Source: an uncultured Acidobacteriota bacterium
GTDB taxonomy: Bacteria > Acidobacteriota > Thermoanaerobaculia > UBA5066 > Gp7-AA6
Assembly: GCA_963764715.1 (NCBI GenBank)
Contig: CAVXTP010000003.1
Span: 64,001-128,000, forward strand
DNA: 64,000 nucleotides
Reading direction: 5' to 3'
Made by a program: the position numbers and the translations under genes. Below, piece by piece: positions 1 through 33,189 of this stretch. The stretch's first letter is position 1. Each line of letters starts with the position of its first letter. The notes beneath the pieces are model-generated. The model did no database searches and was not told the DNA's origin. It saw only the letters and a list, made by a program, of their open reading frames with translations.

Positions 1-200
1 GCCCAGCGGATCCCGGCGTCCGACGAGTAGAACGCCCGGTTGATCGACCACTCGTTGGCGGCGATGCGGGCCTCCGTCGACGTGATCAGCATCAGGGCGA
101 TCCCGATGACCGTCAGGATCGCGAGGACGAGGATCGCGACGACGAGGGCGGCGCCGCGCTCGCGGCGGTTGCGGTCGGTGGAAGTGGAAGTCATGCTCAT
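1..200 (-). CDS. pilX: PilX-like minor pilin, N-terminal part (runs off the window edge)
   Basis: Own translation from ATG at 200: MSMTSTSTDRNRRERG|AALVVAILVLAILTVIGIALMLITSTEARIAANEWSINRAFYSSDAGIRW. Prepilin-like N-terminus lacking Glu5 plus the AFYxxDAG pattern of PilX/GspK. ATGA overlap with the pilW stop. Confidence 0.8.
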   Translation of the reverse strand, partial: MSMTSTSTDRNRRERGAALVVAILVLAILTVIGIALMLITSTEARIAANEWSINRAFYSSDAGIRW

Positions 201-1585
201 CCCTGGAACGCGTAGTTGCGCAGGTTGATCTTCAGGTTCTGGACGCGCCGGCGGAACGTGCCCGGCGTGATCGGGGCCGCGGTGGAGTTCATGATCTGGT
301 AGCCCTGCGACGCCGGTCCCTTGTAGCCCGGATCCGGGTCCTTGGCCTTGGCAAGCAGCGAGATCATCACGCCGTGGAGGCGCGGGCAGTGCATCGCGAA
401 CGACGCGCCCGTGTGCCCGGGGACGAAGGGCTGCTGCTGCTGGAAGTCGGTGTCGACCGGGGCGGCCTCGGTGTCGACGTTGGGAACCCACTCGTCGCCG
501 CCGGCGACCGTCGAGACGTTCGGGTCGACGTTCAACGCGGGCGGGATGGGCGGCTGGACGGTCAGCGCGTTGTCCGTGACGCCGCCGACGATGCCGTCGA
601 TGCCGTAGGCGATCTGCATGTCCTCGACGTCCTCGGCCAGGCGCGTGACCTCGAACGCGTCGCCCCGGCGGATGCCCTGCGCGAGGAACGGGTGAATGCC
701 GGTCGGATCGACCGTCGGGTCCGTCGTGATGAAGAAGACGATGTCGTCGAGGATGCCGGCCCGCCGCACCTTCTGGATCGGCGCGGCGTTGTCGCCGAGG
801 CCCGGCGTCGAAGGAAGCTCGGTGTTGAAGCGCGGGCCGATCGTCCCGCCGAAGTCGACCGTGCCGAAGGTCCCGCCGAGGAGGTTCGTCGGCGCGGTGA
901 TCACGCCGACGTTGTACGCGGCCTGCGGATACCGGGTGACGCCGCCGGGGTTCGGGTCCGAGCAGGCGTAATGCAGGTCGGTGTTGCCGTCCTCGACGAT
1001 CACGAGCATCGGGTTGGCGCCGGCCGTCGCCGTGTACGAGTCGACGGCCGCGAACTGCGGCCGGTTGGTGGCGTCGTCGTTGACGTGCTGGCCGATGACC
1101 AGGTTGCCGACGATCGGCAGAACGTTGAGAGACTGCGAGCCCGTGCACCCGTTGCAGCCGGTCTGCTGATCGAAGCCGATGAGCGGCGACAGGATGACGC
1201 CGCGGATCTCGATCATGTCCGTGCCCGGACGCACCGTCCAGACCGTGCCGCCGGTGTCCGTCACCGTCACGCCGGCGACGTTGTCGTAGGACTGTCCCGC
1301 GGGCGCGATGCCGGGCAGGCCGCGGTCGGCGTGGTTCAGGACGGCCTGCGTCACGTAGAGGCCCCCGGCCCCGGCCATTCGGATGACGCGCGTCATCTGG
1401 TAGATGCCGTAGCGCACGGCGCCCTGGGCGTCGGCCACGTCGGTCTCGTTCTTGTTGATCCGCGCGCTCGCGTCGAAGACCGCGAGCAGGCCGAGCATCG
1501 CGACGGCGAGCAACAGCGACACGATGATCATCTCGATCAGGGTGAAGCCGGCTTCGCGCGAACGCGTCGGGTGAGGAGTCTTCAT
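197..1585 (-). CDS. pilW: PilW-like minor pilin (462 aa)
   Basis: MKTPHPTRSREAG|FTLIEMIIVSLLL class III signal; IRMAG and C-terminal LAEDVEDMQIAYGID motifs typical of PilW; lies between pilV and pilX. Confidence 0.8.
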   Translation of the reverse strand: MKTPHPTRSREAGFTLIEMIIVSLLLAVAMLGLLAVFDASARINKNETDVADAQGAVRYGIYQMTRVIRMAGAGGLYVTQAVLNHADRGLPGIAPAGQSYDNVAGVTVTDTGGTVWTVRPGTDMIEIRGVILSPLIGFDQQTGCNGCTGSQSLNVLPIVGNLVIGQHVNDDATNRPQFAAVDSYTATAGANPMLVIVEDGNTDLHYACSDPNPGGVTRYPQAAYNVGVITAPTNLLGGTFGTVDFGGTIGPRFNTELPSTPGLGDNAAPIQKVRRAGILDDIVFFITTDPTVDPTGIHPFLAQGIRRGDAFEVTRLAEDVEDMQIAYGIDGIVGGVTDNALTVQPPIPPALNVDPNVSTVAGGDEWVPNVDTEAAPVDTDFQQQQPFVPGHTGASFAMHCPRLHGVMISLLAKAKDPDPGYKGPASQGYQIMNSTAAPITPGTFRRRVQNLKINLRNYAFQG

Positions 1586-1589
1586 GGCT

Positions 1590-2114
1590 CTAGTTGCAGA
1601 CCGTCGCCGGGTTCGGGTTGCGGACGAAGCCGCTGACCCTCGCCGTGCGCGCGCCCATGCCGAGATTCGTGCCACCCGAGACCGACCGCACCGTCACGTT
1701 GATGCGCTTGAAGTCGCAGGGCAGCGCCGCGGCGACCGCGTTGAGAACGAACGCGCCCCCCGGAGCGCCCGGGGGCGTCGTCGTGAAGTTGTCGACGGTG
1801 TAGGTCCGCTCGAGCGTGTTCTTCACGCTCGAGGGCGGGATCCCCGTCACCGGGTCGGGCAGCGTCGTCGGCAGGTCGTTGACGTAGGCGCCCGAGGCGA
1901 GCTGCTGGTCTCCGAAGGGCAGGTTCATGAGCTGCTCGAGCCGGTCGCGCGCCAGGTTGTGGATGCTCGTGTACTCGTTGGCGCTGTAGTTCGACCGGAC
2001 GCTCGCGATGAAGAGGGGCGCGATGCCGAGAAGCACGATGCCGAGAAGCGCCAGGGCGATGAGCATCTCGACGAGGGTCAGGCCGGCCTCGCGCCGGCGG
2101 TTCGTCAGTGCCAT
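1590..2114 (-). CDS. pilV: PilV-like minor pilin (174 aa)
   Basis: MALTNRRREAG|LTLVEMLIALALLGIVLLG prepilin motif; LARDRLEQL helix; KRINVTV C-terminal strand; operon order. Confidence 0.75.
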   Translation of the reverse strand: MALTNRRREAGLTLVEMLIALALLGIVLLGIAPLFIASVRSNYSANEYTSIHNLARDRLEQLMNLPFGDQQLASGAYVNDLPTTLPDPVTGIPPSSVKNTLERTYTVDNFTTTPPGAPGGAFVLNAVAAALPCDFKRINVTVRSVSGGTNLGMGARTARVSGFVRNPNPATVCN

Positions 2115-2653
2115 TCCGTTCCCCTCTGCTTGGCGACGGTCGGATTCGGACCGAGGACCTCGATCTTCCCGTTGCCCGAAACCTGCACGGGCAGGTCGTT
2201 GGTCGTCCCGGCACCGATGACACCCCGAATCGTGAACGTCCCGGGCTGGGTCGCGCGGCCGTCCGGCCCGAACATGATCTGGGCCGGCTGGACCGGGTAA
2301 GGATTCGGGGGCGACGGCGGAAAATCGACGAGCGCCGGGAGCCGAAGCTCGGCCACCTTGATCGGCGTCGGAATCGTTTGCTCGAAGGTCTCGATGAGGT
2401 TGAAGCCCTGCGTGCCCGTGGCACGGCTGACGACGACGCGGGCAGGCAGGTTGCGCTTGACCGCGCGCATGCGCGCCGCCTGCAGCGTGATGGCGAGCTG
2501 CGACCCGGCGCTCTTGACCTGGTTGCGCTGCGAGATCTTGGCGAACCACGGGGCCGCCGCGAGCGCGAGGATGCCGATGATCGCCATGACGATCAGCAGC
2601 TCGGCGAGCGAGAATCCGCCGTCCCGGCGGCGTCGACACGATGCACGGAGCAT
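2105..2653 (-). CDS. fimT: FimT/FimU (GspH-like) minor pilin
   Basis: RRDGG|FSLAELLIVMAIIGIL, LQAARMRAVKRN and IMFGPDG motifs of the GspH/FimT family; first gene of the minor pilin operon. Confidence 0.8.
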   Translation of the reverse strand: MLRASCRRRRDGGFSLAELLIVMAIIGILALAAAPWFAKISQRNQVKSAGSQLAITLQAARMRAVKRNLPARVVVSRATGTQGFNLIETFEQTIPTPIKVAELRLPALVDFPPSPPNPYPVQPAQIMFGPDGRATQPGTFTIRGVIGAGTTNDLPVQVSGNGKIEVLGPNPTVAKQRGTEWH

Positions 2654-2668
2654 TTCGGGTGAACAAGG

Positions 2669-2684
2669 AGCGATTCTCGTGCCC
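2669..2684 (-). promoter_or_regulatory. Probable sigma54 (-24/-12) promoter of the minor pilin operon
   Basis: Minus strand GGGCACGAGAATCGCT: GG-N10-GC spacing with a GGCACG core, 15 nt upstream of the fimT ATG. Confidence 0.6.
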
Positions 2685-2772
2685 GCACCCAGGTGTGGGA
2701 CCTAAGCCTTTCGAATGCAACGATATGAGGGCGATGGATCGGGGGTCACAGAGCGCTTTTCGGCCGGTTTTT

Positions 2773-2787
2773 GTTACCCGGGGTAAC
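2773..2787. promoter_or_regulatory. Palindrome, candidate activator or regulator site between the divergent fimT and pilT
   Basis: GTTACCC-G-GGGTAAC perfect 7-bp inverted repeat about 90 bp upstream of the sigma54 motif. Confidence 0.35.
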
Positions 2788-2903
2788 GGATCCTGTCAGT
2801 CGCCCGGGAGCCTCCCGAGACCCCGACTGGAAGCGGAATCGACTCCGTCTCTCGACTCTCGACTCTCGCGCCGCGAGTCCCTACACTGACTCGACACACC
2901 CCC

Positions 2904-5381
2904 ATGTGGCCCACCAAACGCAAGGCATCGGGGCTCGAAGCCCTGTTCGGACGGCTCCGCGCCCGCCACTGGAAAGGCGAGGCCGAACGCGACGAGCTGC
3001 TCAAAACGCTCGCCGCGGCTCCGAATCTCGCGCCGGAAGACGTGGGCTGGATGGCGGTCGAGACCGACGCCGCCCTGCGGCAGGCGGGCCTCGCGCTCCT
3101 GAAGCGGCACCCGTACGAGGCCGCGGCGGCGGGGCTCTTCCCCTTCCTCTCCTCGCAAACCGAGGCGGTCCGCCGGCAGGCGATGCAGGCGCTCGAGCTT
3201 CTCGCCGGAGGCCAGTTTCTCGAAAAGCTCCCGACCCTGCTGTCGAACCCCGATCCGGCCGTCGTCCATGCCGCCCTGGATTACCTCAAGAGATCGCCCA
3301 ACGAGCGGGCCCTCCCCTCCATCGCGAAGGTCCTCGAGGCATCGCACTCGCCGGCGATCCGGAAGAAGGCGTTCGCGATCGCCGAGGCCACGCCGTCCCC
3401 CAAAGTGACGGCGATCGCCCTGGCCGCGCTCGAGGACGACGACGAGGACCTGCGGTACCGCGCCGTCCAGCTCCTCTCGAAGTTCCCGGACGAGGCGCAG
3501 ATCCCGGCGCTTCTGGCCCACTGCCGCAACGACTCGACGCGGGTCAAGGACGCCGCGATCGCGGCGCTCGGACCGGTGCTCGCCAAGTCGCAGAAGTCGT
3601 GGGCGGAGGACGTGCTGCCGCTGCTCTCCGACGGCAACCCCAAGGTGCGGCAGCTCGCCTCGCGCATCATCTCGACGCAGGAGCCCGGCCGCATCGCCGA
3701 CGCGTTCCTCCAGACGTTCAAGGGACAGTACGGCCCCGTCCGCGACCGGGCCGTCGAGGCCCTGCGGGAGCTCTCCCCCGAGTTCATCCGGGCGTTCCTC
3801 GCGCGGGACGCCTCCGAGGACCCCCTCGAGGCCGGGCTCGCGGCCTCGATCGCCGTGACGATGCGCTCCGCGGAGGTCGTCCCGCACTGCCTGCGCTTCC
3901 TGACGAGCGACGACTGGTGGCTGCGGGACCGGGCGGCGATGGCGCTCGCCGAGATCCGCGACGAGTCGGCGCTGCCGCAACTGCTCCAGATGCTCTCCGA
4001 CCCCGAGTCCAATCTCTCGGCGGCCGCGGCCCTGGGGGCCTGGGGATCGCCGAAGGCCCTGCCGGCGCTGCTCGACGCGTACAAGCAGTCGTCGGCGTTC
4101 GCCGACCTGCGCCTGGAGATCCTCGACGCCTTCGCGAAGATCCAGGACCCGAAGGTCGGCCCGCTCCTGCAGAAGATCGTCCAGGTCGACCCGAGCCCAC
4201 TCGTCCGCGACAAGGCCACCCGGCTCGTCCGGCAGCGCGCCGGGGAACCGGACGTCGAGCCGAGCGGGGCCCCGCGCGTCTTCGCCCCGGTCGACTTCGA
4301 TGCGACGCCGAGCCCCTCGCTGTCGGACCTGCTCCGCCACGCGCGGGCCATGTCGGCCTCCGACCTGCACCTGGGGACCGGAACCGTGCCCCGCGTCCGG
4401 ATCCACGGCCGCCTCATTCCGCTCCCGCTCCCGGAGCCCACGGCCGAGCAGATGGACGGGTGGATCCGGCCGATCCTCGGCGACGAACGGTCGGCCGAGC
4501 TCGAGACGCGCCGCCAGCTCGACTTCTGCCACAAGGACCCGGAGCTCGGCCGCTTCCGCACCAACGTCTTCTTCGAGCGCAAGGGCTTGAACGCCGTCCT
4601 TCGGCTCGTGCCCTACGAGATCCCGAACCTCACCGACATCGGCCTGCCGGAGAGCCTCTGGGAGATCACGGGATACTCGCAGGGCCTCATCCTCGTGACG
4701 GGCGCCGCCGGGTGCGGGAAGACGACCACGCTCGCGGCCCTCGTCGACCGCATCAACGAAACCGAGCGCGGCCACATCATCACCGTCGAGGACCCGATCG
4801 AGTACGTCCACACGAGCAAGGAATCGCTCGTGAACCAGCGGGAGATCCCGTCCCACTCGAAGTCCTTCGCGAAGGCCCTGCGGCAGTCGCTCCGCGAGGA
4901 CCCGGACGTCATCCTCGTCGGCGAGATGCGCGACCTCGAGACGATCTCGCTCGCCATCACCGCCTCCGAAACGGGCCACCTGGTGCTCGCGACCCTCCAC
5001 ACGACGACGGCCTCCTCCACGGTCGACCGCGTCATCAACGCGTTCCCGCCCGACCAGCAGGGCCAGATCCGGATGATGGTCGCCGACTCGCTCAAGGCCG
5101 TCATCTCCCAGGCCCTCCTGCCGCGGCGGGACGGATCGGGGCGCGTGGCGGCCTTCGAGATCCTGCGCAACACGCCGAACGTCGCGGGCCTGATCCGCGA
5201 CTCGAAGACGTTCCAGATCCCCACCGCGATCCAGACGGGCTCCGCCTCGGGCATGCAGCTCATGGACGGCGCGCTCCTCCAGCTCGTCCAGGAAGGCGTC
5301 ATCGAGCCCCGGGTCGGCTACGACAAGGCCGTGCGCAAGGAAGCGTTCGAGCCCTTCCTCGAGGAAGGCGGCGCGGCGTGA
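2904..5381 (+). CDS. HEAT-repeat / PilT-PilU family retraction ATPase fusion (825 aa)
   Basis: N-terminal ~440 aa of helical repeats (e.g. LEDDDEDLRYRAVQLL, LSDGNPKVRQLA, LTSDDWWLRDRAAMALA). C-terminal PilT domain: ASDLHL, RFRTNVF, Walker A GAAGCGKTTT, EDPIE, LREDPDVILVGEMRD, TGHLVLATLHT, GMQLMD. Confidence 0.9.
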   Translation: MWPTKRKASGLEALFGRLRARHWKGEAERDELLKTLAAAPNLAPEDVGWMAVETDAALRQAGLALLKRHPYEAAAAGLFPFLSSQTEAVRRQAMQALELLAGGQFLEKLPTLLSNPDPAVVHAALDYLKRSPNERALPSIAKVLEASHSPAIRKKAFAIAEATPSPKVTAIALAALEDDDEDLRYRAVQLLSKFPDEAQIPALLAHCRNDSTRVKDAAIAALGPVLAKSQKSWAEDVLPLLSDGNPKVRQLASRIISTQEPGRIADAFLQTFKGQYGPVRDRAVEALRELSPEFIRAFLARDASEDPLEAGLAASIAVTMRSAEVVPHCLRFLTSDDWWLRDRAAMALAEIRDESALPQLLQMLSDPESNLSAAAALGAWGSPKALPALLDAYKQSSAFADLRLEILDAFAKIQDPKVGPLLQKIVQVDPSPLVRDKATRLVRQRAGEPDVEPSGAPRVFAPVDFDATPSPSLSDLLRHARAMSASDLHLGTGTVPRVRIHGRLIPLPLPEPTAEQMDGWIRPILGDERSAELETRRQLDFCHKDPELGRFRTNVFFERKGLNAVLRLVPYEIPNLTDIGLPESLWEITGYSQGLILVTGAAGCGKTTTLAALVDRINETERGHIITVEDPIEYVHTSKESLVNQREIPSHSKSFAKALRQSLREDPDVILVGEMRDLETISLAITASETGHLVLATLHTTTASSTVDRVINAFPPDQQGQIRMMVADSLKAVISQALLPRRDGSGRVAAFEILRNTPNVAGLIRDSKTFQIPTAIQTGSASGMQLMDGALLQLVQEGVIEPRVGYDKAVRKEAFEPFLEEGGAA

Positions 5382-6514
5382 GCGCGGAGACGCCCGTGGA
5401 AGCCAAGACGAAGCTCGTCGGCGCGCTCGACGTGGTCTCGACCGGGATCAACCGGATCGACCGCTTCCTGACGATCCTTCCCAAGCGCAACGGCTCGGAC
5501 CTGCACCTCTCGGTCGGCTCGCCGCCCGTCGTGCGGATCGACGGCGAGCTCGAGCGCATGCGGTACCGCGTCCTCTCGGAAGGGGACTTCTTCAACCTCG
5601 TCGGCCCGATCACGCCGGGCCGGATCTGGGAGGCGTTCCAGGAGAGCGGAGACATCGACTTCGCGTACCAGATGGGCACCGTCGCCCGCTTCCGCGTCAA
5701 CCTCTTCCGCCAGGAGCGCGGCTCGGCGGCCGTCTTCCGGCTCATCCCGTCGCGCATCCCGACGGCCGAGGACCTGAACCTCCCGGCGCCGATCGCCGGC
5801 CTCTACGCCGAGCGGCGCGGCCTGATCCTCGTGACGGGCCCGACCGGAAGCGGCAAGTCCACGACGCTCGCCGCGGTCCTCGACCGCATGAACAAGCGCC
5901 TCGCCCAGCACGTCGTCACGATCGAGGACCCGATCGAGTTCGTCCACACCAACGACAAGTCCGTCTTCACGCAGCGCGAGATCGGCCCCGACGTGCCCGA
6001 CTTCGCCGCGGGCGTGAAGGCCGCGATCCGCGAGGACCCGGACTGCCTGCTCGTCGGCGAGATGCGCGACCTCGAGACGATGCGCATGGCCCTGTCGGCC
6101 GCCGAGACCGGCCTTCTCGTCTTCGCGACCGTGCACACCAACTCGGCGGCCAAGGCCGTCGACCGGATCATCGACGCCTTCCCCGCGGCCGAGCAGGAGC
6201 AGGTGCGCATCGTGCTGGCGGAGGCGCTTCGCGGAGTCGTCGCTCAGCAGCTCCTGCGCAAGAAGGGCGGCGGCCGCGTGGCATCCTTCGAGATCCTGCT
6301 CGGCTCGACCGCCCTCTCCAACGCGATCCGCGAGGGCAAGACCGCCATGATCAACAACATGATCGCGACGGGGAAGGGCCGCGGGATGATCTCGATGGAC
6401 CAGTCGCTGACCGAGCTCGTCAAGGGAGGGCTCGTCGAGCCGGACGAGGCGCTCGATCGCGCGATCGACAAGGAATCCTTCAAGACGATGCTCGGGGCCA
6501 TCCCGAAAAACTAG
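5378..6514 (+). CDS. pilT: PilT/PilU family type IV pilus retraction ATPase (378 aa, GTG start)
   Basis: GSDLHL, RFRVNLF, GPTGSGKST, EDPIE, REDPDCLLVGEMRD, ATVHTNSA, GMISMDQSL; GTGA overlap with the upstream stop. Confidence 0.9.
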   Translation: MSAETPVEAKTKLVGALDVVSTGINRIDRFLTILPKRNGSDLHLSVGSPPVVRIDGELERMRYRVLSEGDFFNLVGPITPGRIWEAFQESGDIDFAYQMGTVARFRVNLFRQERGSAAVFRLIPSRIPTAEDLNLPAPIAGLYAERRGLILVTGPTGSGKSTTLAAVLDRMNKRLAQHVVTIEDPIEFVHTNDKSVFTQREIGPDVPDFAAGVKAAIREDPDCLLVGEMRDLETMRMALSAAETGLLVFATVHTNSAAKAVDRIIDAFPAAEQEQVRIVLAEALRGVVAQQLLRKKGGGRVASFEILLGSTALSNAIREGKTAMINNMIATGKGRGMISMDQSLTELVKGGLVEPDEALDRAIDKESFKTMLGAIPKN

Positions 6515-6516
6515 CC

Positions 6517-6600
6517 GGGGCCAGGTCTCTCACTCGGATTTCCGCGACGACTTCGCTGGAGCCGGCCGCAGCCGAAATCCGAAAAATGAAGACCTGACCC
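6517..6600. repeat. Degenerate REP/REPIN-like palindromic element
   Basis: GGGGCCAGGTCT...GAAAAATGAAGACCTGACCC; the right arm matches the arms at 58081 and 58144; sits between convergent genes. Confidence 0.65.
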
Positions 6601-6605
6601 TCGTT

Positions 6606-8369
6606 TCAGGTGGGCAGACGCAGCGTGAAGACCGCTCCCCCGCCCGGCCGCTCGGAGACCTCGACGGTCCCGCCGTGGAGCTCGGCGATGCGGGCCACGA
6701 TCGCGAGGCCGAAGCCGGAGCCGCCGGGCTTCGAGGAGTAGAACGGCAGGAAGATCTTCTCCCGGGCCGCCGCGTCCACGCCGGGGCCGCGGTCCCAGAC
6801 CGACAGCGCGACCTCGGTCTCGCCCCGCGCCCCCGCGATCACGACGGCGTCCGGCTCGGGCCAGCGCTCCGGCGGAGTCGCCTCGGCGGCGTTGCGCAGG
6901 AGGTTCGCGAGCGCCCGCCGCAGCAGGACCGAGGACCCGCCGACCGTCGGGAACGCGCCGTCCTGGCCGACCGTGAGGCCGGGATGGGCGCGCTCGGTTT
7001 CCCCTCGCGCCGCCTCGACGACCCCGTCGAGGTCGACCCGCTCCGGCGAGAAGGCCTCCGGCCGGGCGAAGAGCAGGAAGTCGCTCGTGACCCGGCTCAT
7101 CTCCTGCGCCTCGCGGCGGATCGCGCGCACGAACTCGGCGGCCCGCTCGGGCTCCGCCGCGCGCAGGGCGAGGTCGGCGTACCCGTCGATCGCGGCCGCC
7201 GCGTTGCGGAACTCGTGGGCGGCGCCGGCCGAGACGCGGCCGAGGTCGGCGAGGTGCCGCGCGAGGGCGACGCGCCCCTCGAGGCGCCGGATCTCGGTCA
7301 GGTCCGAGAAGAGCGCCACGGCGCCGAGGAACCGTCCGTCGCCTCCCTGCGCGGGCGTGGCGGTGACGCCGAGGGCCCGCTCCTCCTCCCCTTCCCGCCG
7401 CCAGCGGACCTCGCGGCGTCCGGCGACCGTCCGGTCGCGGAGCACGTCGGCGATGAGCGCCAGGAAGTCCGGCGCGTCGGCGAGGAGGCGCTCGTACGAA
7501 TCCCCGCGGCGCTCTCCCTCGAGCTTCAGGATCTCGCGGCCGGCCTCGTTGATGTCGAGCACGCTGCCGCCCGGATCGACCGACAGCAGGCCGGTCGGCA
7601 GGTTGCGCGAGAGCGTGCGGGCCGCCGTCTCGAGATCGTCGGCGCGCTCCTTCTCGCGGCGGGCGAGACGCTCGAGCTCTCGCTCCTTCTCGTGGAGCGT
7701 CTCGATCGTCGACTCGAAGCGGGAGATCAGGAAGTGCCGCTCGTCGCCGTGCTCGGCCCCGCCGCCGGGCGCGCCCCCCGCGGCCTCGAGGAGCCGTTCG
7801 TAGGGTTTCAGGAGCGAGCGCAGGTAGAAGCCGGCGAGCACGATCAGCGCGATGGCCGACGCCGGCACGAAGATCGAGAGCCGCTGGGCGTAGGCGTTCA
7901 GCGCGGCCCCCGCTCCCGGGTCGACGGCGATCGCGTAATAGCGGCGGCCCGTCGCGAAGGTCGAGAGCAGCAGCGGCGGCCGCGACCGCCACTCGTGGAC
8001 CACGCGGCCGGCCGCCGGCCGGGGCTCCGGCAGCAACCGCGGCGCTTCCGGCGGGCCCGTCCCGGCCGAGTTCAGCCGCCGGCCGTTCTCGTCGTAAGTC
8101 GCCAGGTACGCGACGTCCGGCTCGATCGCTCCCCGCTCGAGCGCATCCTCCGATGCGCCCGGGCGCGCCGGCGACAGGGCGACCCGGCGCAGGATCTCGG
8201 CCGTGCGCCGCTCGGCCTCCTCCCGTCCCCAGGCCACCGCGCTGCGGAAGAAGAGAAGCGTCAGGAAGTTCAGGAAGAGGATGAGGAGGAGCGCGACCCA
8301 GAGGAAGAGCCGGGACTCCCGCCGGAAAGTGTGCGGAACGGACGCGGGTGCGCTCGTCGATTCGCTCAT
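6606..8369 (-). CDS. Membrane PAS-domain sensor histidine kinase, PilS/NtrB-like (587 aa)
   Basis: Two TM segments, coiled coil, PAS (LPTGLLSVDPGG..INEAG), H-box AHEFRN, N-box ALANLLRNAAEA, DRGPG, IFLPFYSSK, GSGFGL; ATGA-coupled to pilD. Confidence 0.85.
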   Translation of the reverse strand: MSESTSAPASVPHTFRRESRLFLWVALLLILFLNFLTLLFFRSAVAWGREEAERRTAEILRRVALSPARPGASEDALERGAIEPDVAYLATYDENGRRLNSAGTGPPEAPRLLPEPRPAAGRVVHEWRSRPPLLLSTFATGRRYYAIAVDPGAGAALNAYAQRLSIFVPASAIALIVLAGFYLRSLLKPYERLLEAAGGAPGGGAEHGDERHFLISRFESTIETLHEKERELERLARREKERADDLETAARTLSRNLPTGLLSVDPGGSVLDINEAGREILKLEGERRGDSYERLLADAPDFLALIADVLRDRTVAGRREVRWRREGEEERALGVTATPAQGGDGRFLGAVALFSDLTEIRRLEGRVALARHLADLGRVSAGAAHEFRNAAAAIDGYADLALRAAEPERAAEFVRAIRREAQEMSRVTSDFLLFARPEAFSPERVDLDGVVEAARGETERAHPGLTVGQDGAFPTVGGSSVLLRRALANLLRNAAEATPPERWPEPDAVVIAGARGETEVALSVWDRGPGVDAAAREKIFLPFYSSKPGGSGFGLAIVARIAELHGGTVEVSERPGGGAVFTLRLPT

Positions 8370-9160
8370 CGGGGCCACATCGAACGGTAGCGCGCCACGA
8401 TGGGATCTCCCAGGAACCAGGCCGCGATCGCGCCGAGCGCGAGGAAGACGCCGAAGGGAAGCCGCGTCTTGCCGTCTCCCCCGCGCGTCAGGATGAGGCC
8501 GAGGCCGACGACGCTGCCCGAGATCGAGCCGAGAAGGACGGTCACGACCACGCCCGCCGGACCCAGCAGCGCCCCGATCATCCCCAGCATTTTGACGTCG
8601 CCGAGGCCCATCCCCTCCTGTCCCGCGATCTTTTCGTAGGTGAAGGCCAGCAGGTAGAGCCCGCCCGCCCCGAGCAGGGCGCCGAGCGCGGCTTCGAGCG
8701 GCGTCCGCCGGACCGAGACGAACGCCAGCGCCAGGCCGACGACGATCCCGGGAAGCGTGATGACGTCCGGCAGGATCTGGTGGTCGTAGTCGATCGCGAG
8801 AAGCGCGATCGAAGCCGAGACGAGGAACGCGCCCGTCGCGGCGTCGCCCCAGGACGGCGCCGCCTTCAGGACCAGGACCCAGAGCGCGCCGTTCGAGAGC
8901 TCGACCAGCGGATAGCGGACGGCGATCGGAGCGCGGCAGCTCCGGCAGCGCCCGCCGAGCGCGATCCACGAGAGGACCGGCACGTTGTCCCGGGGCGCGA
9001 TGCGGCTCCCGCAGGACGGGCAGCTCGAGGGCGGCGAGACGACCGACTTCTCGTTCGGGAGCCGGTGGATGACGACGTTCAGGAAGCTCCCGACGACGAG
9101 GCCGAGCACGCCCGCGACGGCGAGGCCCGGGAGCGTCTGCGCCAGCGCGAGCGGCGTCAC
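8366..9160 (-). CDS. pilD: Prepilin peptidase / N-methyltransferase (A24)
   Basis: GSFLNVVIHRLP, CPSC..CRSC zinc motif, IDYDHQILPD, GMGLGDVK, LPFGVFLALG; GTG start overlapping the upstream TGA. Confidence 0.93.
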   Translation of the reverse strand: MTPLALAQTLPGLAVAGVLGLVVGSFLNVVIHRLPNEKSVVSPPSSCPSCGSRIAPRDNVPVLSWIALGGRCRSCRAPIAVRYPLVELSNGALWVLVLKAAPSWGDAATGAFLVSASIALLAIDYDHQILPDVITLPGIVVGLALAFVSVRRTPLEAALGALLGAGGLYLLAFTYEKIAGQEGMGLGDVKMLGMIGALLGPAGVVVTVLLGSISGSVVGLGLILTRGGDGKTRLPFGVFLALGAIAAWFLGDPIVARYRSMWPR

Positions 9161-11370
9161 GACGGCCGCCTCCCGAGGCGGACGGGCTCGCCGAGGTGCC
9201 AGAGGACGAGGATCGTCAGGAGCGCCGCCGCGGAGATCGCGGCGCCGGCGTAGAACGCCGTCGGTCGGTAGCGGAAGACGACCCGGTGGGTCCCGGCCGG
9301 TAGCGCGACCGCGCGAAACCATCCGTCCGCCCGAAGGAGCGGGAGCCGCTTCCCGCCCTCTTCCGCGACCCAGCCCGGATAGTGGAGGTCCGTCAGGACG
9401 AGGAGGCCGGCGTAGCTCGCCGTCACCTCGGCCACGACCTCCTCCGGCTCGTCGGAGGCGAGGTGCGCGACGAGCAGCGGCGTCGCGTCCGGCGGGCCCG
9501 CGGGATCGGGCGCGGGCCGGCGGTCGAGCAGCACTTCGCGCGTCAGGTCGACCTCGCCCGCGGCGACCCGCTTCCACGCGCGCTCCGCGTCCGGCTCGAT
9601 CCGGTAGCCGCGCACGTACGACAGCCGCGGCCGGTAGGGAGCGAGCGGAGCGCGGAAGAAGTCGCCGATCTTGCGCGACGGCAGCCGCGCCGGCGGAAAG
9701 GGCGTCCACAGGGCGCGCGCGCTCGCGGCGCCGGCCGGCAGCGCGTCCTCGGCGGCCCCGACCGATTCCTCGATCGCGGCGGCGGCCGCCGTCTTCAGCG
9801 GCGCCGCCGTGCGGAGCGTCGGGACGCGGCAGCCGAGGTTCGTGTAGCCGAGGAGCGACTCGCGCTGGCGTCGCAGCATCGCGGCGTCGAACGTTCCGTC
9901 GCGGAGCGTCCAGCCCGCGAGAAGCGCCATCGGAGGAGTGACGATGCGGCCGGCCACCCGCGCGAGCGGCTCCACGAGCTCCGGGCAGCGGCGCACGTCG
10001 GCCTCGGGCGCAAACCGCGGAACGTCCGCGAGACCGAGCGCGAGGGCGGCGACGAGGGCCGCGGCCGCCGACCCGGAGAGAAGCACGCCCCACGCCGGCC
10101 GGGCCCCCGGGCCGAGCGCCAGGAGTCCGACGGCCGCGCTGCCGAGGCCGCACGCCAGGCGCACCGGGAGGGGCAGCGGCGCGAGCGTCGCGAGGAGGAG
10201 CGCGCCGACCGCGGCGAGCCCGAAAACCGCACGCGCCCGCACCCCGCGCGCCGAAAACCGGAGGGCGTCGAGCCCCAGCCCCGAGAGCATCGCGAGACCG
10301 AACGCGGTCCAGGCGAGCCCCTTGCCCGCGTAGCGGACGCGATCGAGCGGCGGGATCGCGCGCAGCCACGCGCCCGGCGGCCCGGCCCCCGCGAGGACGA
10401 CGCCCGCGACGGCCACGATCGCGAGAATCACCGCGAGCCGCCGCCGGTGGCCCTCCGAAAACGCCGCCGCCGCCGCGACCAGGACGAACGGCGGCAGGAA
10501 GAGCGAGGCGAGGTAGGCCCCCCCGAAGAAGGGAGGCGAGAAACCCGCGAGCGACAGCGCGTCGCGGACGCCGACCGCGCCGAGGTCGCGCTCGGCCGCC
10601 GGTCGGGCCGAGCGACGGTCCGAGTGGAGGCCGAGCTCCCCCATCGGAACGAGGACCCACGCCGCGAGCGCCAGGCCGAGCAGGATCGCCGCTCCCGAGC
10701 GGCGGAGCGCGGCGAAGCGGGGCGTCGGGGCGACCGGCTCCGGAAAGGGCGCCCGGGGGCTCGCCGCCAGAACGAGCGCGAGGACGATCGACGCCGCGGA
10801 CATCTCCGGGCTGCCCGCCATCGCCTGGAGGCCCACGAGGGCGGCGAGGCCGAGGGTCGACGCCCGCGTCGCGAGGCCCGAGCGGGCGAGCGCGGCGATC
10901 GCCGGCAGGTACGCGAAGGCGCCGAAGTGGTTCCAGTAGACCGAGAACGAGGCCGCGAAACCGGAGGCCGCGAAGACCGCGGCCCCCAGGAGCGCTCCGG
11001 CGTCCGAGACGTTCTCCTCCTTGAGGAACCGGCGCGCTCCCCACGCCGCGATCGCGAAGTGGAGGAGCAGGAAGAGCGCGCCGGCGAGCGCCGCCGAGGG
11101 CAGCAGGAAGAGGAGCGTCGGCGGATAGAAGACGCCGCCCTGGCCGTTGGCGAGCCAGGGCTCGCCCGCGCCCGACAGCGGGTTCCAGAGAGGCAGGGAT
11201 CCCGAGCGCAGCCGCTCGACCGTGTAGAGCTTGAGCGGGTAGAAGAAGTCGCCCTGGTCCCGGAGCGTGGGGGCCTCGCGCCGCAGGAGCGCGGGGGAAA
11301 GCCACATCACGGCGGGAAGGAGGGCCGCGGCCGCGCAGACTCCGGAAACGAGCCGACGGCGCAGCAACAC
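9157..11370 (-). CDS. YfhO-like polytopic GT-C membrane glycosyltransferase (copy 1)
   Basis: RDQGDFFYP..LPLWNPLSGAGEPWLAN..FYPP N-terminal motif, many TM helices, C-terminal LVLTDLHYPGW..RADGWFRAVALPAGTHRVVFRYRP domain typical of YfhO. Confidence 0.75.
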   Translation of the reverse strand: MLLRRRLVSGVCAAAALLPAVMWLSPALLRREAPTLRDQGDFFYPLKLYTVERLRSGSLPLWNPLSGAGEPWLANGQGGVFYPPTLLFLLPSAALAGALFLLLHFAIAAWGARRFLKEENVSDAGALLGAAVFAASGFAASFSVYWNHFGAFAYLPAIAALARSGLATRASTLGLAALVGLQAMAGSPEMSAASIVLALVLAASPRAPFPEPVAPTPRFAALRRSGAAILLGLALAAWVLVPMGELGLHSDRRSARPAAERDLGAVGVRDALSLAGFSPPFFGGAYLASLFLPPFVLVAAAAAFSEGHRRRLAVILAIVAVAGVVLAGAGPPGAWLRAIPPLDRVRYAGKGLAWTAFGLAMLSGLGLDALRFSARGVRARAVFGLAAVGALLLATLAPLPLPVRLACGLGSAAVGLLALGPGARPAWGVLLSGSAAAALVAALALGLADVPRFAPEADVRRCPELVEPLARVAGRIVTPPMALLAGWTLRDGTFDAAMLRRQRESLLGYTNLGCRVPTLRTAAPLKTAAAAAIEESVGAAEDALPAGAASARALWTPFPPARLPSRKIGDFFRAPLAPYRPRLSYVRGYRIEPDAERAWKRVAAGEVDLTREVLLDRRPAPDPAGPPDATPLLVAHLASDEPEEVVAEVTASYAGLLVLTDLHYPGWVAEEGGKRLPLLRADGWFRAVALPAGTHRVVFRYRPTAFYAGAAISAAALLTILVLWHLGEPVRLGRRPS

Positions 11371-12154: not shown

Positions 12155-12640
12155 TCAGAACTGGGTGCCTTCCGGCCACTGGATGAACGTGCCGTTGGAG
12201 TAGTAGATGTCGTCGTTGAAGTTCGTCGTCGTGCCGCAGTTGATCGCGGTGTTCGCCTTGTCGCGGCCGTAGGACGCGATCACGTAGTTGTTGCCCGGAG
12301 CGTCCGAGCCGTAGGTGAGGAACGTTCCCCAGCCGTCGATCTTCGGGGCCTGGGCGATGTAGGTCGGCGACAGGTTCGAGAACGAGCCCGTCGTCATCGT
12401 CACGCTGGTCGTCGTGTAGATGCCGCCCGCGCAGGTCGTCGCGGCCGGGTACGAGTTGTTGTCGACCGCGTACGCCTCGATCGCCGTCGCGAGGGCACGC
12501 ATGTCGCTCATCGACCGCTTCTGCTTGCCGCGCTGAACCGCGTTCAGCAGGTTCGGAATCGCGATCGCCGCCAGGATGCCGATGATCGCGATGACGATCA
12601 GCAGCTCGATCAGAGTAAAACCGGACTCCCGCTTCTTCAT
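12155..12640 (-). CDS. Major type IV pilin / GspG-like pseudopilin, copy 2 (161 aa)
   Basis: MKKRESG|FTLIELLIVIAIIGILAAIAIPNL; GGAGG RBS upstream; one residue different from copy 1. Confidence 0.92.
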   Translation of the reverse strand: MKKRESGFTLIELLIVIAIIGILAAIAIPNLLNAVQRGKQKRSMSDMRALATAIEAYAVDNNSYPAATTCAGGIYTTTSVTMTTGSFSNLSPTYIAQAPKIDGWGTFLTYGSDAPGNNYVIASYGRDKANTAINCGTTTNFNDDIYYSNGTFIQWPEGTQF

Positions 12641-12679
12641 TCTGTTTTCCCTCCGTTAAGTGTTTCTGACGGGGACTGG

Positions 12680-12695
12680 AGCAAGACGCGGGCCA
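12680..12695 (-). promoter_or_regulatory. sigma54 -24/-12 promoter of pilin copy 2
   Basis: Minus strand TGGCCCGCGTCTTGCT. Confidence 0.75.
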
Positions 12696-12722
12696 TCGGA
12701 ACCCGACGCACAAGTCATGCGT

Positions 12723-12735
12723 AATCAGACACTTA
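12723..12735 (+). promoter_or_regulatory. Candidate IHF site upstream of the pilin copy 2 promoter
   Basis: AATCAGACACTTA matches WATCAR-N4-TTR, about 30 bp upstream of the -24 element. Confidence 0.45.
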
Positions 12736-12817
12736 TGGCTGCGTCACACGGCCGCATATTCCGCGTTTTGTCAGTCCCATGAGCAAATCGGTGACGAAAT
12801 CTCGACCCGCGAAAAGG

Positions 12818-12844
12818 AAAAAGGCCCCGATCGCTCGGGGCCTT
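12818..12844 (-). terminator. Rho-independent terminator after pilin copy 1
   Basis: AAGGCCCCGA-TCGC-TCGGGGCCTT hairpin followed by a U-tract on the minus strand. Confidence 0.8.
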
Positions 12845-12867
12845 CGTCGAAACGCCGGGGAGAACGA

Positions 12868-13353
12868 TCAGAACTGGGTGCCCTCCGGCCACTGGATGAA
12901 CGTGCCGTTGGAGTAGTAGATGTCGTCGTTGAAGTTCGTCGTCGTGCCGCAGTTGATCGCGGTGTTCGCCTTGTCGCGGCCGTAGGACGCGATCACGTAG
13001 TTGTTGCCCGGAGCGTCCGAGCCGTACCGGAGGAACGTTCCCCAGCCGTCGATCTTCGGGGCCTGGGCGATGTAGGTCGGCGACAGGTTCGAGAACGAGC
13101 CCGTCGTCATCGTCACGCTGGTCGTCGTGTAGATGCCGCCCGCGCAGGTCGTCGCGGCCGGGTACGAGTTGTTGTCGACCGCGTACGCCTCGATCGCCGT
13201 CGCGAGGGCACGCATGTCGCTCATCGACCGCTTCTGCTTGCCGCGCTGAACCGCGTTCAGCAGGTTCGGAATCGCGATCGCCGCCAGGATGCCGATGATC
13301 GCGATGACGATCAGCAGCTCGATCAGAGTAAAACCGGACTCCCGCTTCTTCAT
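12868..13353 (-). CDS. Major type IV pilin / GspG-like pseudopilin, copy 1 (161 aa)
   Basis: Same prepilin N-terminus; ATG at 13353 gives 161 aa like the other copies; GGAAGGG RBS-like sequence upstream. Confidence 0.92.
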   Translation of the reverse strand: MKKRESGFTLIELLIVIAIIGILAAIAIPNLLNAVQRGKQKRSMSDMRALATAIEAYAVDNNSYPAATTCAGGIYTTTSVTMTTGSFSNLSPTYIAQAPKIDGWGTFLRYGSDAPGNNYVIASYGRDKANTAINCGTTTNFNDDIYYSNGTFIQWPEGTQF

Positions 13354-13395
13354 GGACGCCCTTCCTTTCAAATGTTTCTGCTTCGGCAATACCGC

Positions 13396-13411
13396 AGCAA
13401 GCGCTAGGCCA
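13396..13411 (-). promoter_or_regulatory. sigma54 -24/-12 promoter of pilin copy 1
   Basis: Minus strand TGGCCTAGCGCTTGCT, with an AT-rich tract upstream. Confidence 0.75.
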
Positions 13412-13489
13412 GCCCCCATACAGTGAGTTAAGTGTATCGGTTTCAGGGGTTTGAATCAAACTGGCGGGCCGCCGGAACGCCGATTTTCG

Positions 13490-17275: not shown

Positions 17276-19570
17276 GCCGCCCACCGCACCCGCCGAAGGC
17301 CGACGAGCAGCAGGAAGACCGGCGAGCGGTCCCCAGCGCGACAGCGCGAGGCCCGGATAGCCCTCGCGCCATTCGATCCGGTGCCGGCCGGCCGGGACCG
17401 GGCACGCCGGTGAAGGCGAGCTGCGCCGGCTCGCGTCTCGACCGGGAGGCCGTCGATCGCGACCGAGCGGTAGCTCCAGTCGCCCCGCAGGACGAAGAGC
17501 CAGGACGGGTCGGGGCTCTCCGTCTCGAGCGACGAGGCGCTCGGGGCTCTTCTCGAGGATCCGGAGGCTTCCCGGCCGGGCGCGGCCTTCGGCGTGGCGG
17601 CCGGTCTCGACGACGATCTCCTCCGGCGGCAGGCGCGGCAGCGCGCCGAGGGCCTCCACGGGGCCCGGCACTTCCCGCCAGCGCGGCGAGAGCCGGAGAT
17701 CCGGCAGCGCGTCCGGGTTCTCGTCCCAGGTGTCGAAAGGCGATCGCCTCCGAAGGGACGAAATCCCGCGAACGGCCTTCTGGTCGCGGAAGCGGATCCC
17801 GTAGCGCAGGGAGAGCGTCGAGAAGAACCCGGCCGAATCGGGCTGCGCGGCCGCCACGGAGGAGATCTTGCGCAGGCTCTCGATCCGCGAGAGGTCGCCG
17901 GCGTCGAGATCGCTGTTCAGGACGGTCCCCCGCTTCCAGAGCGTGGGCGTGAAGTAGAACCAGCCCTGGCGGAAGAACTCGCTTCCGCCGAGGTCGCCGA
18001 TCGCCTCGGCGTCGGCGAGCGGGGAGAGCGGCTGGTAGAGCGATTCGTCGACCGTGCGGAACGCGCCGTCCGGATCGCGCCGCGCGAGCGTGCGCGCGAA
18101 GGCGGTCGGCGGAAACACCGTTGCCTCGTGCGCCGTCTGCGCGATCGGGCGATTGGCCGCGACGGGAACGGCCGTCAGGACGAGGAGCCCGGCGCCGAGC
18201 GCCGCCCGCGAGGTCCGGCGGACGAGGTCCGCGCCGATCGCCGTCGCCGCCCAGAGCAGCCCCGCGACCGCGAGCGCCGGAGCGAGCTCGCGGGAAGCCG
18301 ACGCCGCGAGCCGGGCATCGCCGCCCGCCGCGGCGACGACGAACCGGCCCGCCGCGCCGGCGGCGAGGGCCGATCCGCCGGCGGCGAGCGTCAGCACGGC
18401 CGAGACGACGAGGAGGCCGCGAGCCCGCGCCGAGCCCGCCCGCAGCCGGTCGACCGCGAGCCCCGCCGCGACCGCCAGGGCGAAGGACCCGCCGACCATG
18501 AACTTCTCGAGGTAGCGCAGCGGCACCGGAGACGGCAGCCGCCCCCAGGCGGCCGGCAGCAGGTGACCCGAGAGCGCCAGCGCCAGCGCCGCGAAGAAGA
18601 GCGCCCGCGCGAATCGCGCCCCGCGGGGCGTCGTGCCGGCCCGGCCGAAGAGCCCCACGAAGGCGATCGGCGCGACGAAGATCGTCGCGAAGAAGTGGCG
18701 GAAGACCTGGGTGCCCCAGTCCCGCGACAGGTCCATCGACCAGATCGCGCCGAAGGGGTACGGGACGAGGAGCTCGGCGAGGCGGGCCACGGGCAGCGTG
18801 AAGCCGGTGACCTCCGCGAGCGTCAGGCCGCCGACGATCCGCCGGGTCTCGGGCGCGAGCAGCGCCGTGGCGAGCACCTGCGGAAGCGCGAGGAGAAGCG
18901 CCGCGGCGAGCCCCGCGCCGAGGGCGAGCGTGCGGGGCCGGCGCTCCCCCGCCGGCGTCTCGAGGAGGATCCACAGGGCGGAGGCGAAGACGGCGGTCGC
19001 GATCGAGAAGGCGTCGCCCGCGAGGAGCATCGCGCCGTAGACGAGCGCGAGCGGAACGAGGCGTCCGGCCGGTCCCCGCGCGGGCCGCACGAGCGCCCAG
19101 AGCGTCCAGGGAAGCAGGTTCGCGCCCGGCTGGAAGTTGCTGTAGAAGACCTCCGAAACGAGCACGCCCGAGAACGCGAAGGCTCCCGCCGCGACCCACG
19201 CCGCGCCGCGCGAGCCGCCGATCGCCCGCAGGAGCCCGAGCATCCCGAGGCCTCCCAGGATCCAGTGGAAGACCGGGAAGATCCGGACGGCCAGCGGAAG
19301 CGGCAGGATCGCGAGGGCCGGCCGGAGAGGATAGAAAACGCCGGCGTTGGGATTGCTTCCGAGCGGGCGGCCGCCCGAGACCGACTCCCACCACACGGGG
19401 ATTCGCCCCCGCGACCAGGCGTCGTGCACCGCGTGCTCGAGGGGCAGGTTGTAGGGAACGATGTCCCGCCCGACGAAAGTGCGGGGCCCGAAGAGCGGGT
19501 CGGCGTACACCACGACGACCATCGCGGCGAAGAGCGCCGGAAGCAGCCAGCCGCGAAGACGCGCGCTCAC
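17272..19570 (-). pseudogene. YfhO-like GT-C membrane glycosyltransferase (copy 3), frameshifted near its 3' end
   Basis: YADPLF..GRDIVPYNLPLEHAVHDAWSRGRIPVW..SGGRPLGSNPNAGVFYP; GDLSRIESLRKIS; frame disturbances at about 17280-17770; GTGA overlaps at both ends. Confidence 0.7.
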
Positions 19571-21915: not shown

Positions 21916-21925
21916 CGAACCGGAA

Positions 21926-28730: not shown

Positions 28731-29425
28731 CGCTTCGGGCCCGGCCCGAAACGGTGCCGGACGAGCGCCCCGAGCGCCGAGAAGCCGTCCTTCAGGCGGA
28801 TCTTCTTGCCCTCGGCCTGCGAGCGGCCGAAGTACGAGACCGGCACCTCGAAGATCCGGAACCCTCCCCGGGCCACCTTGGCCGTGATCTCGGCGTCGAC
28901 GCCGAAGCCCGGCGACTGGAGGTCGAGCGCCGGTACGACGCGGCGGTGAAACGCCTTGTAGCAGGTCGCCATGTCCGAGAGGTTCAGGCCCGTGACGACG
29001 TTGGAGATGAGCGTCAAAACGCGGTTGCCCTGCTGGTGCCAGAAGTTCTGGACGCGGTGCTCGGAGCTGCCGACGAAGCGCGAGCCGAAGACGACGTCCG
29101 CGCGGCCGGACTCGATCGGCTTGAGCAGTTGCGGATACTCGGCCGGGTCGTACTCGAGGTCGGCGTCCTGGATGATCAGGATCTCGCCCCGGGCGGCCTC
29201 GAGCGCCGTGCGGACGGCCCGGCCCTTGCCGAGGTTCTTCGGCTGCAGGATCACGCGGACCCCGGCGCGGCCGTCCCAGGCGCGGAGCTTCTCGCGGGTC
29301 CCGTCGGTCGAGCCGTCGTCCACGACGACGACTTCCTTCTCCGTCGGCTCGCTCGTGACGAGCCGGAGGATCTCGTCGATGGTCCGCTCTTCGTTGTAGA
29401 CGGGGATCAGGACGGAAAGCTTCAC
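28727..29425 (-). CDS. GT2 DPM1-like polyprenyl-phosphate glycosyltransferase
   Basis: KLSVLIPVYNEE, VDDGSTDGT, NLGKG, QDADLEYDP, GSRF, EVPVSY..R..GKKI; paralog of the GT2 domain at 25612-27009. Confidence 0.88.
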   Translation of the reverse strand: MKLSVLIPVYNEERTIDEILRLVTSEPTEKEVVVVDDGSTDGTREKLRAWDGRAGVRVILQPKNLGKGRAVRTALEAARGEILIIQDADLEYDPAEYPQLLKPIESGRADVVFGSRFVGSSEHRVQNFWHQQGNRVLTLISNVVTGLNLSDMATCYKAFHRRVVPALDLQSPGFGVDAEITAKVARGGFRIFEVPVSYFGRSQAEGKKIRLKDGFSALGALVRHRFGPGPKR

Positions 29426-29452
29426 GGCGCTCCCGGAATGATACGCGAGTCG

Positions 29453-29480
29453 GTAAGCAGTAAGCAGTAAGCAGTAAGCG
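29453..29480. repeat. Heptamer tandem repeat (GTAAGCA)x4 in a divergent promoter region
   Basis: GTAAGCA GTAAGCA GTAAGCA GTAAGCG read directly. Confidence 0.9.
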
Positions 29481-29504
29481 GGGGACGGTCTCATAATCGA
29501 GGGA

Positions 29505-33161: not shown

Positions 33162-33189
33162 CCGTGGCTTCCACTGTACACTGACCGCG

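Follow-up and report, generated by a model that had tools for sequence, protein, structure and literature searches.

The subject of this analysis is a pair of adjacent PilT-family genes in a 64,000-nucleotide stretch of DNA from an uncultured Acidobacteriota bacterium (contig CAVXTP010000003.1, positions 64,001 to 128,000), hereafter called the window. The first gene, HEAT-PilT (product P0001), encodes a solenoid of HEAT repeats joined through a linker to a PilT-family ATPase domain, and the second, PilT2, encodes a PilT-family ATPase of normal size. Their features, in window coordinates, are the following:

2904..5381, + strand: HEAT-PilT fusion gene (open reading frame with HEAT_2, T2SSE and TIGR01420 matches and full-length homologues)
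2931..4238, + strand: HEAT-repeat solenoid, residues 10-445, 27 predicted helices in about 13 hairpins (AlphaFold2 model and Pfam)
4239..4319, + strand: linker, residues 446-472, with 6 prolines in 27 residues (no secondary structure; composition count)
4320..5378, + strand: PilT-family ATPase domain, residues 473-825 (TIGR01420, nearest solved sequences, and template modelling (TM) score to 6OJX and 3JVV)
4701..4727, + strand: Walker A, GAAGCGKTT, residues 600-608 (read from the sequence)
4788..4805, + strand: Asp box, EDPIEY, residues 629-634 (read from the sequence)
4905..4934, + strand: atypical Walker B with the catalytic glutamate, DVILVGEMRD, residues 668-677 (read from the sequence)
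4968..5003, + strand: His box, ETGHLVLATLHT, residues 689-700, with both histidines kept in P0001 (read from the sequence)
5378..5381, + strand: GTGA overlap, in which the GTG start of PilT2 lies on the stop codon of HEAT-PilT (5379-5381; read from the sequence)
5378..6514, + strand: PilT2, 378 residues, PilT-family ATPase of normal size (T2SSE match; TIGR01420, 425 bits)
6104..6139, + strand: variant His box of PilT2, ETGLLVFATVHT, with leucine in place of the first histidine (alignment with the HEAT-PilT ATPase domain)

Translation of the open frame at 2904-5381 (+), read from the sequence, gives a protein of 825 residues. Because the G+C content of the window is about 70%, long spurious frames are common in it; this frame has a coding signature, with a G+C fraction of 0.70, 0.47 and 0.94 at the three codon positions, and the start codon is supported by the MWPTK start shared with close homologues. 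In Pfam searches, HEAT_2 matched P0001 in four stretches with 128.7 bits (cut-off, 27.7), HEAT matched as well, HEAT_PBS scored 35.4 (cut-off, 20.9), and T2SSE matched residues 575-741 with 149.4 bits. The NCBIfam model of the PilT/PilU family, TIGR01420, scored 417.1 bits against a cut-off of 319.1 and aligned residues 473-811 with positions 2-340 of its 343. P0001 thus has the marks of that family, namely a score along the whole profile, the four signature motifs (Walker A, Asp box, Walker B and His box, as defined in the accessible text of PMC5424180) and the two-domain PilT fold, and departs from it in size, since the family consists of single modules of about 340-400 residues. It also has those of HEAT-repeat proteins (PF13646, PF03130), with scores above cut-off and an alpha-solenoid of hairpins.

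An AlphaFold2 model of P0001, built on a 41-row family alignment, had a mean predicted local distance difference test score (pLDDT) of 87.3 and a predicted template modelling score (pTM) of 0.50. Residues 10-445 were all-helical in the model (27 helices, with block pLDDT means mostly of 77-94), the linker was unstructured, with pLDDT below 50 at residues 450-456, and the PilT fold spanned residues 473-818. Foldseek comparison of the ATPase half gave a TM score of 0.95 and a root-mean-square deviation of 1.7 Å with Geobacter metallireducens PilT4 (6OJX_A), and a TM score of 0.95 with Pseudomonas aeruginosa PilT (3JVV_C). By sequence, the nearest solved ATPase was P. aeruginosa PilT (3JVU, 315 bits), with PilU (9N32) at 242 bits, and the solenoid resembled the designed HEAT-like alphaRep chains (E about 1e-22). 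Judged by these motifs and matches, HEAT-PilT is a catalytically complete PilT-type ATPase with a covalently joined solenoid. The first-pass annotation, made from the DNA letters and their translations, had described it in the same way, as an intact PilT/PilU domain with Walker A, Walker B and His box preceded by HEAT/PBS-like repeats and a proline-rich linker. It had added that model PilT and PilU proteins have no such extension, and the solved PilT and PilU structures, of 356-402 residues, agree with this.

The HEAT-PilT fusion is a genuine, conserved gene and not an assembly artefact. We compared 45 related loci, which comprise L001-L008 and 37 regions cut from Acidobacteriota and Myxococcota genomes with HEAT-domain matches, and the HEAT and ATPase parts lay in one open frame at 44 of them, the exception being L097. 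Both domains were present in 120 of 120 close homologues among the matches listed (776-831 residues, 64-94% identity), which, where a name was given, were called 'PilT/PilU family type 4a pilus ATPase' of Thermoanaerobaculia or Acidobacteriota. In species-representative genomes, end-to-end matches were found at L001-L007 (metagenome-assembled genomes of Thermoanaerobaculia or other Acidobacteriota, 65-76% identity) and at L008 (a metagenome-assembled genome of Myxococcales, 35% identity), and in the remaining 72 loci kept from that search the ATPase half alone matched. Mis-assembly, or the loss of a stop codon that once separated a HEAT gene from a pilT gene, might also have produced such a frame, and the first-pass annotation had pointed to separate HEAT and PilT genes in homologues as the sign of this. 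The protein collection does hold 33 short HEAT-only proteins, a few of them on long contigs, but most cover part of the domain or come from contigs of a few kb. Because independent assemblies show the in-frame fusion at 44 of the 45 loci and the listed homologues are full-length, this explanation is refuted, and we regard it as vanishingly improbable; rare true split forms may exist. Full-text literature searches, with subscription journals outside their reach, found no paper on the HEAT-PilT architecture, in line with the earlier statement that no characterised example was known.

To describe how widely the architecture occurs, we took the best 150 of 54,830 PilT-family matches among 1.84 billion cluster representatives (50% identity) and sorted them by their coverage of the 450-residue HEAT region. 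About 69 of these 150 carry HEAT and T2SSE. Coverage was at least 350 residues in 30 representatives and 100-349 residues in 35, and in the latter group HEAT_2 and T2SSE were found in all 34 proteins scanned with Pfam (the 274-residue fragment P0131 was left out). In the 85 representatives with coverage below 100 residues, HEAT_2 was found in 7 of the 76 scanned (nine proteins of at most 437 residues, with no extension, were left out), and most of those lacking HEAT_2 had N-terminal extensions that matched no Pfam family. Collinear HEAT-domain matches in frames of 748-947 residues occurred in 19 of 301 sampled Acidobacteriota genomes (16 of 185 genera), a tally that counts the unpublished genome G024; this search with the HEAT domain was used because a full-length search at E ≤ 1e-150 undercounted (9 of 301). 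Among the 301 Myxococcota genomes sampled, 41 had matches to the related HEAT domain of L008; some matches were partial and may be other HEAT proteins. In a FastTree phylogeny of 171 ATPase domains, the clade that includes P0001 (support, 92) had 45 rows, and 40 of these carry HEAT repeats; another HEAT clade comprised 26 rows with forms of 910-960 residues (support, 99), and the canonical PilT of the same genome lay outside the P0001 clade.

PilT2, like the HEAT-PilT ATPase, had 3JVU as its nearest solved sequence (334 bits; PilU, 216 bits), and it shares 43% identity with the HEAT-PilT ATPase domain. Of the 45 loci, 41 have a second PilT-family gene after the fusion on the same strand. In 36 of these 41, no more than 180 nt separate the stop codon of the first gene from the PilT fold of the second, and in L008, L096, L098, L100 and L112 the distance is 318-1580 nt; in L008, the gap corresponds to an N-terminus of about 530 low-complexity residues on the second gene. 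Each of the 42 PilT2 proteins (window plus 41 loci) was nearer to every other PilT2 than to any ATPase domain of the first gene, and in the FastTree phylogeny PilT2 formed a single clade that included the Myxococcales copy (support, 93). Pairwise-identity matrices of the two genes correlated with r = 0.92 over 42 pairs (maximum of 500 shuffles, 0.15). Because the PilT2 proteins group together and the identity matrices correlate, the duplication is old and the pair has been passed on as a unit. These comparisons show HEAT-PilT to be the leading member of an ancient pair of co-inherited genes found across two phyla, a module defined by a fused HEAT and ATPase protein followed on the same strand by a PilT protein without the first His-box histidine, as at the window locus. 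Such near-constant pairing points to an undescribed two-part retraction engine.

The catalytic residues were counted in 42 HEAT-PilT/PilT2 pairs, from the window and 41 loci. The ETGH histidine (H692 of P0001) was present in all 42 HEAT-PilT proteins and in none of the PilT2 proteins, which had Leu (25), Thr (5), Val (5), Ile (3), Met (2) or Phe (2) instead. By contrast, the TLHT histidine (H699 of P0001) was present in all 42 PilT2 proteins, and at this position 25 HEAT-PilT proteins had His, 14 Asn, 2 Ser and 1 Asp. The His box is thus divided reciprocally between HEAT-PilT and PilT2. The first histidine is kept in other PilT-family proteins (57 of 59 with N-terminal extensions, 13 of 14 plain ones and 5 of 5 paralogues of the same genome), and the three exceptions, P0244, P0266 and P0272, lie beside the PilT2 clade in the FastTree phylogeny. 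Because nearly all other PilT-family proteins keep it, loss of the first histidine is specific to the partner lineage. As to the remaining residues, the Walker A lysine was invariant in both proteins (42 of 42 each), as were the acidic residues of the Asp box (E629, D630 and E633 in 42 of 42 HEAT-PilT proteins, and their equivalents in PilT2); the Walker B glutamate (E674) was Glu in 38 and Asp in 4 HEAT-PilT proteins and Glu in 42 of 42 PilT2 proteins; and the Walker A loop was variable in HEAT-PilT and read GPTGSGKS in every PilT2.

The two His-box histidines of PilB have the ETGH threonine between them; the second histidine binds the γ-phosphate, and the box has been proposed to mediate cooperativity between chains (accessible text of PMC5424180). 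P. aeruginosa PilT coordinates the γ-phosphate through H229, and an H229A substitution abolishes twitching, as stated in the part of PMC6858323 available to us; the available part of PMC12607626 describes the H229A variant as partly functional, with help from PilU. On our reading of the motif alignment, H699 of P0001 would correspond to H229. Because this γ-phosphate histidine is replaced by Asn, Ser or Asp in the fusion protein of 17 of the 42 pairs, mostly the more distant forms from Acidobacteriota and Myxococcota, part of the HEAT-PilT family may be impaired in hydrolysis. In the clade of P0001 itself, both histidines of the fusion protein are intact.

The module is flanked in the window by three genes on the opposite strand:

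197..1675, − strand: PilW-like minor pilin (N_methyl and PilW), conserved in L001-L004, L006 and L007
2105..2653, − strand: divergent GspH/FimU-like minor pilin (N_methyl and GspH), conserved beside the module in L001-L005, L007 and L081
6606..8969, − strand: convergent PAS-HisKA-HATPase_c histidine kinase (Pfam), downstream in L001, L002, L004-L007 and L081

This arrangement of pilin and kinase genes is kept in close relatives, and the PAS kinase is also found downstream, at about 35% identity, in L082, L084 and L085 of the same order. Past the kinase in the window lie a YfhO-like membrane protein gene and then two pilin genes, and in two of the same-order loci a prepilin peptidase gene (Peptidase_A24) lies just past the kinase (L082:3-1046 (+) and L084:2-985 (+)). 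At the 38 loci beyond the close relatives, the flanking genes were heterogeneous (transporters, peptidases, a tRNA synthetase, penicillin-binding proteins). One of these 38 loci, L117, had a Pkinase gene immediately downstream of the module, a count that comes from short flanks and a crude picking of open reading frames. Seven proteins of this genome score above the TIGR01420 cut-off, one of which has a HEAT arm, and a canonical pilB-pilT pair is present on contig 9; because of this separate pilB-pilT cluster, we consider the module to be accessory. The Myxococcales genome of L008 likewise has, besides the module, a canonical PilT gene next to a PilB-like gene. A promoter scan of positions 2600-6700 found no σ70-like site, and the three terminator-like matches in that interval (1.6 expected) were all on the minus strand. 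Three metatranscriptome-labelled runs gave 10-20 reads, mostly of 90-95% likeness, all on conserved ATPase motif regions, and these reads probably come from other organisms.

HEAT-PilT resembles the solved PilT proteins (3JVU/3JVV, PilT4 6OJX and Aquifex 2EWV) in the sequence, fold, four motifs and family score of its ATPase domain, and differs from them in about 470 additional N-terminal residues (solenoid and linker), in its placement in a clade separate from the canonical PilT of its own genome, and in its pairing with a PilT2 of variant His box. The PilT motif that we take to read AIRNLIRE is VAGLIRDSK in HEAT-PilT. The PilT-PilU pairs of Vibrio cholerae, P. aeruginosa, Acinetobacter baylyi and Myxococcus xanthus are likewise two adjacent PilT-family genes whose products presumably act on one machine, and in such systems one motor is described as bridging the other to the platform (accessible parts of bioRxiv 10.1101/2025.10.30.685630 and PMC12607626). 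HEAT-PilT is not a PilU, because it has no C-terminal extension, the fold ending at residue 818 of 825; PilT2 also lacks the extended C-terminal domain of PilU, and both are nearer to PilT. The HEAT arm is instead N-terminal, at the site where the C-terminus of PilU docks on PilT as described in that literature, in the accessible parts of which we found no counterpart of the His-box division.

A further described pair is that of MXAN_6705 and MXAN_6706 in M. xanthus, tandem PilT paralogues that are conserved across Myxococcales, one with a long N-terminus; deletion of MXAN_6706 causes a partial defect in S-motility (PMC13584747, accessible text). The likeness is closest at L008, where HEAT-PilT is followed by a PilT2-type gene with a low-complexity N-terminus of 530 residues, although the extension of MXAN_6705 is described in the same text as intrinsically disordered and not as HEAT repeats. 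As an observation in its own right, this PilT2 gene (L008:8549-11221 (+)) has an N-terminus of SAIRRTGQMRSPLRQSGDQGS-like repeats, which recalls the 'disordered' N-terminus of MXAN_6705. The nearest described system would thus be the PilT-PilU pair, and the nearest described gene pair MXAN_6705/MXAN_6706, which we compared by its published description. PilB and GspE follow the same principle, in that an ATPase core resembling PilT carries an accessory domain (N1, MshEN) at its N-terminus, whereas HEAT repeats are a different fold. P0001 scored far below the cut-offs of the PilB/GspE models (TIGR02538, 123 against 675.65; TIGR02533, 137 against 630) and of the DotB and VirB11 models in NCBIfam, and Pfam found no MshEN or N1 domain on it. 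Finally, the HEAT-PilT solenoid shares HEAT_PBS, HEAT_2 and alphaRep matches with HEAT proteins of the PBS-lyase type and with alphaRep scaffolds; those, however, are stand-alone binders or lyase subunits, none of them joined to a motor ATPase.

At a probability of roughly 0.5, we favor the reading that HEAT-PilT and PilT2 form a paired accessory retraction motor on a type IV pilus machine, with the HEAT arms as a docking platform. HEAT-PilT would form a hexamer in which every subunit bears a HEAT solenoid of about 440 residues on a flexible linker, and it would act together with PilT2, either as stacked rings like those of PilT and PilU or as a mixed ring. PilT2 would be the constant hydrolytic engine, and HEAT-PilT an adaptor or a regulated subunit. 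In V. cholerae, PilT residues D2, E53, R35 and K36 dock the C-terminus of PilU, and PilT bridges PilU to PilC, which is modelled on another interface of PilT (accessible text of bioRxiv 10.1101/2025.10.30.685630). Since PilU docks on these residues of PilT, an arm that extends from residue 1 of the PilT fold should project to the cytoplasmic side, where PilU would sit. The solenoid arms would leave the ring at its N-terminal face, away from PilC, and could dock a localizing or regulatory partner, in keeping with the scaffold or regulatory role that the first-pass annotation had proposed for the solenoid. A more specific proposal, that the two proteins are an obligate heteromeric motor (a mixed or double ring) in which the His-box triad is shared between them and the HEAT arms gate engagement with the pilus platform, is tentative, and we hold it to be doubtful.

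Several points count against a paired retraction motor, whose function we infer in its entirety. Pairing is not universal: L097 has neither the fusion nor a second PilT gene, L090 has a distant ATPase alone, 1.9 kb away, and the partner status of L109 and L111 cannot be judged, as their contigs end within 548 nt. Co-inheritance and the correlation of r = 0.92 would also be expected from shared descent and are not proof of contact. The first-pass annotation had hinted that HEAT-PilT might work with the PilT encoded downstream. Comparison supports this strongly, through the conservation of the pair and the reciprocal changes in the His box; structure prediction of the HEAT domain (residues 1-460) in complex with PilT2 scored 0.01 in both uncontrolled runs, which is evidence neither for nor against it. 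The pTM of 0.50 of the P0001 model indicates that the solenoid and ATPase halves hold no fixed position relative to each other. His-box residues mainly act inside the nucleotide site of one subunit, and reciprocal loss alone therefore needs no mixed ring. In the accessible parts of the literature searched, we found no role assigned in PilT to the first histidine of the His box. Lastly, we saw no pilus genes in the flanks of 1.5-3 kb outside this order, so that the link to the pilus rests on homology and on the context in this lineage; the flanks were short and the picking of open reading frames crude, and absences are weak evidence.

These points leave room for other explanations. HEAT-PilT and PilT2 could be two independent motors, the former a homohexamer that retracts a pilus of its own, for example one of the neighboring pilins, with the arm tuning or localizing it, and the latter a separate homohexamer that is merely co-transcribed. 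Walker A, Asp box and Walker B are indeed complete in both window proteins, the neighborhood of minor-pilin and pilin genes is confined to this order, and multiple PilT paralogues are common, with seven in this genome, four in Geobacter sulfurreducens (PMC5065972) and PilT plus four in M. xanthus (PMC13584747), as given in the accessible text of these papers. Independence is nevertheless unlikely, as neither adjacency at 41 of 45 loci over two phyla nor reciprocal, lineage-wide changes in the His box would be expected from it; moreover, 17 of 42 lineages have a fusion protein without the γ-phosphate histidine, and P. aeruginosa PilT no longer supports twitching when it loses that residue. We consider it distinctly unlikely that the pair powers another process, such as a type IV filament-like or trafficking system, and that the pilus neighborhood is lineage-local. 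The heterogeneous flanks of the 38 loci outside the close relatives would fit such a role, as would the proposal that PilT-like proteins are traffic ATPases in G. sulfurreducens (PMC5065972, accessible text); yet both ATPases score well above the PilT/PilU cut-off and are nearest to solved PilT proteins, the module adjoins minor pilin, pilin and prepilin peptidase genes in this family or order, and the absences come from the survey of short flanks noted above.

HEAT-PilT might also be mainly a brake or regulator, whose ring would bind ATP, hydrolyse it weakly, and cap PilT2 or canonical PilT or compete with them, while the arm senses a signal. Replacement of the γ-phosphate histidine in 17 of 42 fusion proteins, the variable Walker A loop of HEAT-PilT against the constant one of PilT2, and the sensor kinase that adjoins the module in this order all speak for such a role. 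It is very unlikely, however, given that the clade of the window protein keeps all catalytic motifs, including both histidines, and that the Walker A lysine and the Asp box are invariant throughout the family.

We also noted other extended or doubled PilT proteins. The genome of the window has two near-identical PilT-family paralogues (G000:C22:9504-10532 (−) and G000:C6:36861-37889 (+)) with a coiled-coil-like C-terminal tail of about 130 residues (EEQEEKWKLRLTEKDEELNKY...), an extension of another kind than HEAT. Nine of the best 150 representatives (P0159-P0161, P0163, P0166, P0178, P0179, P0195 and P0259) have two PilT domains per chain (708-1024 residues); in most, the first domain is divergent, with no recognisable His box, and the second is canonical. 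We considered whether these chains are fusions of the two genes of the HEAT-PilT module and mostly rejected this, since their second domains group with canonical PilT proteins in the FastTree phylogeny; P0159 alone has a second His box like that of PilT2. Elsewhere in the window, a set of genes at 9157-11370 (−), 28727-29635 (−), 29478-31556 (+), 40606-41571 (−) and 38663-39697 (−) codes for YfhO-like and STT3-like membrane proteins, two GT2 glycosyltransferases and one NAD-dependent sugar epimerase/dehydratase. The set is near the pilin genes at 12155-13455 and may be a cluster for glycosylation of proteins, possibly of pilin. Two frames of 847 and 890 residues (19567-22110 (−) and 32932-35604 (+)) have a strong coding signature and no Pfam match at E ≤ 1e-6.

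Type IV pilus biology has yet to settle how motors of the PilT family are recruited, regulated and combined, and PilT-PilU stacking was modelled no earlier than 2025-26. HEAT-PilT is a natural variant in which an accessory module is covalently attached to one motor, and its partner PilT2 has a conserved change in an element that may couple the ATP sites of different subunits. Acidobacteriota and Myxococcota of soil and sediment carry the module widely, annotated merely as 'PilT/PilU family ATPase'. If the two proteins are an obligate heteromer, two-motor retraction would have been solved a second time, independently of PilU, and this solution would be present in at least two phyla. The module makes it possible to test whether retraction motors can be heteromeric or regulated by an arm, and what the first histidine of the His box does.

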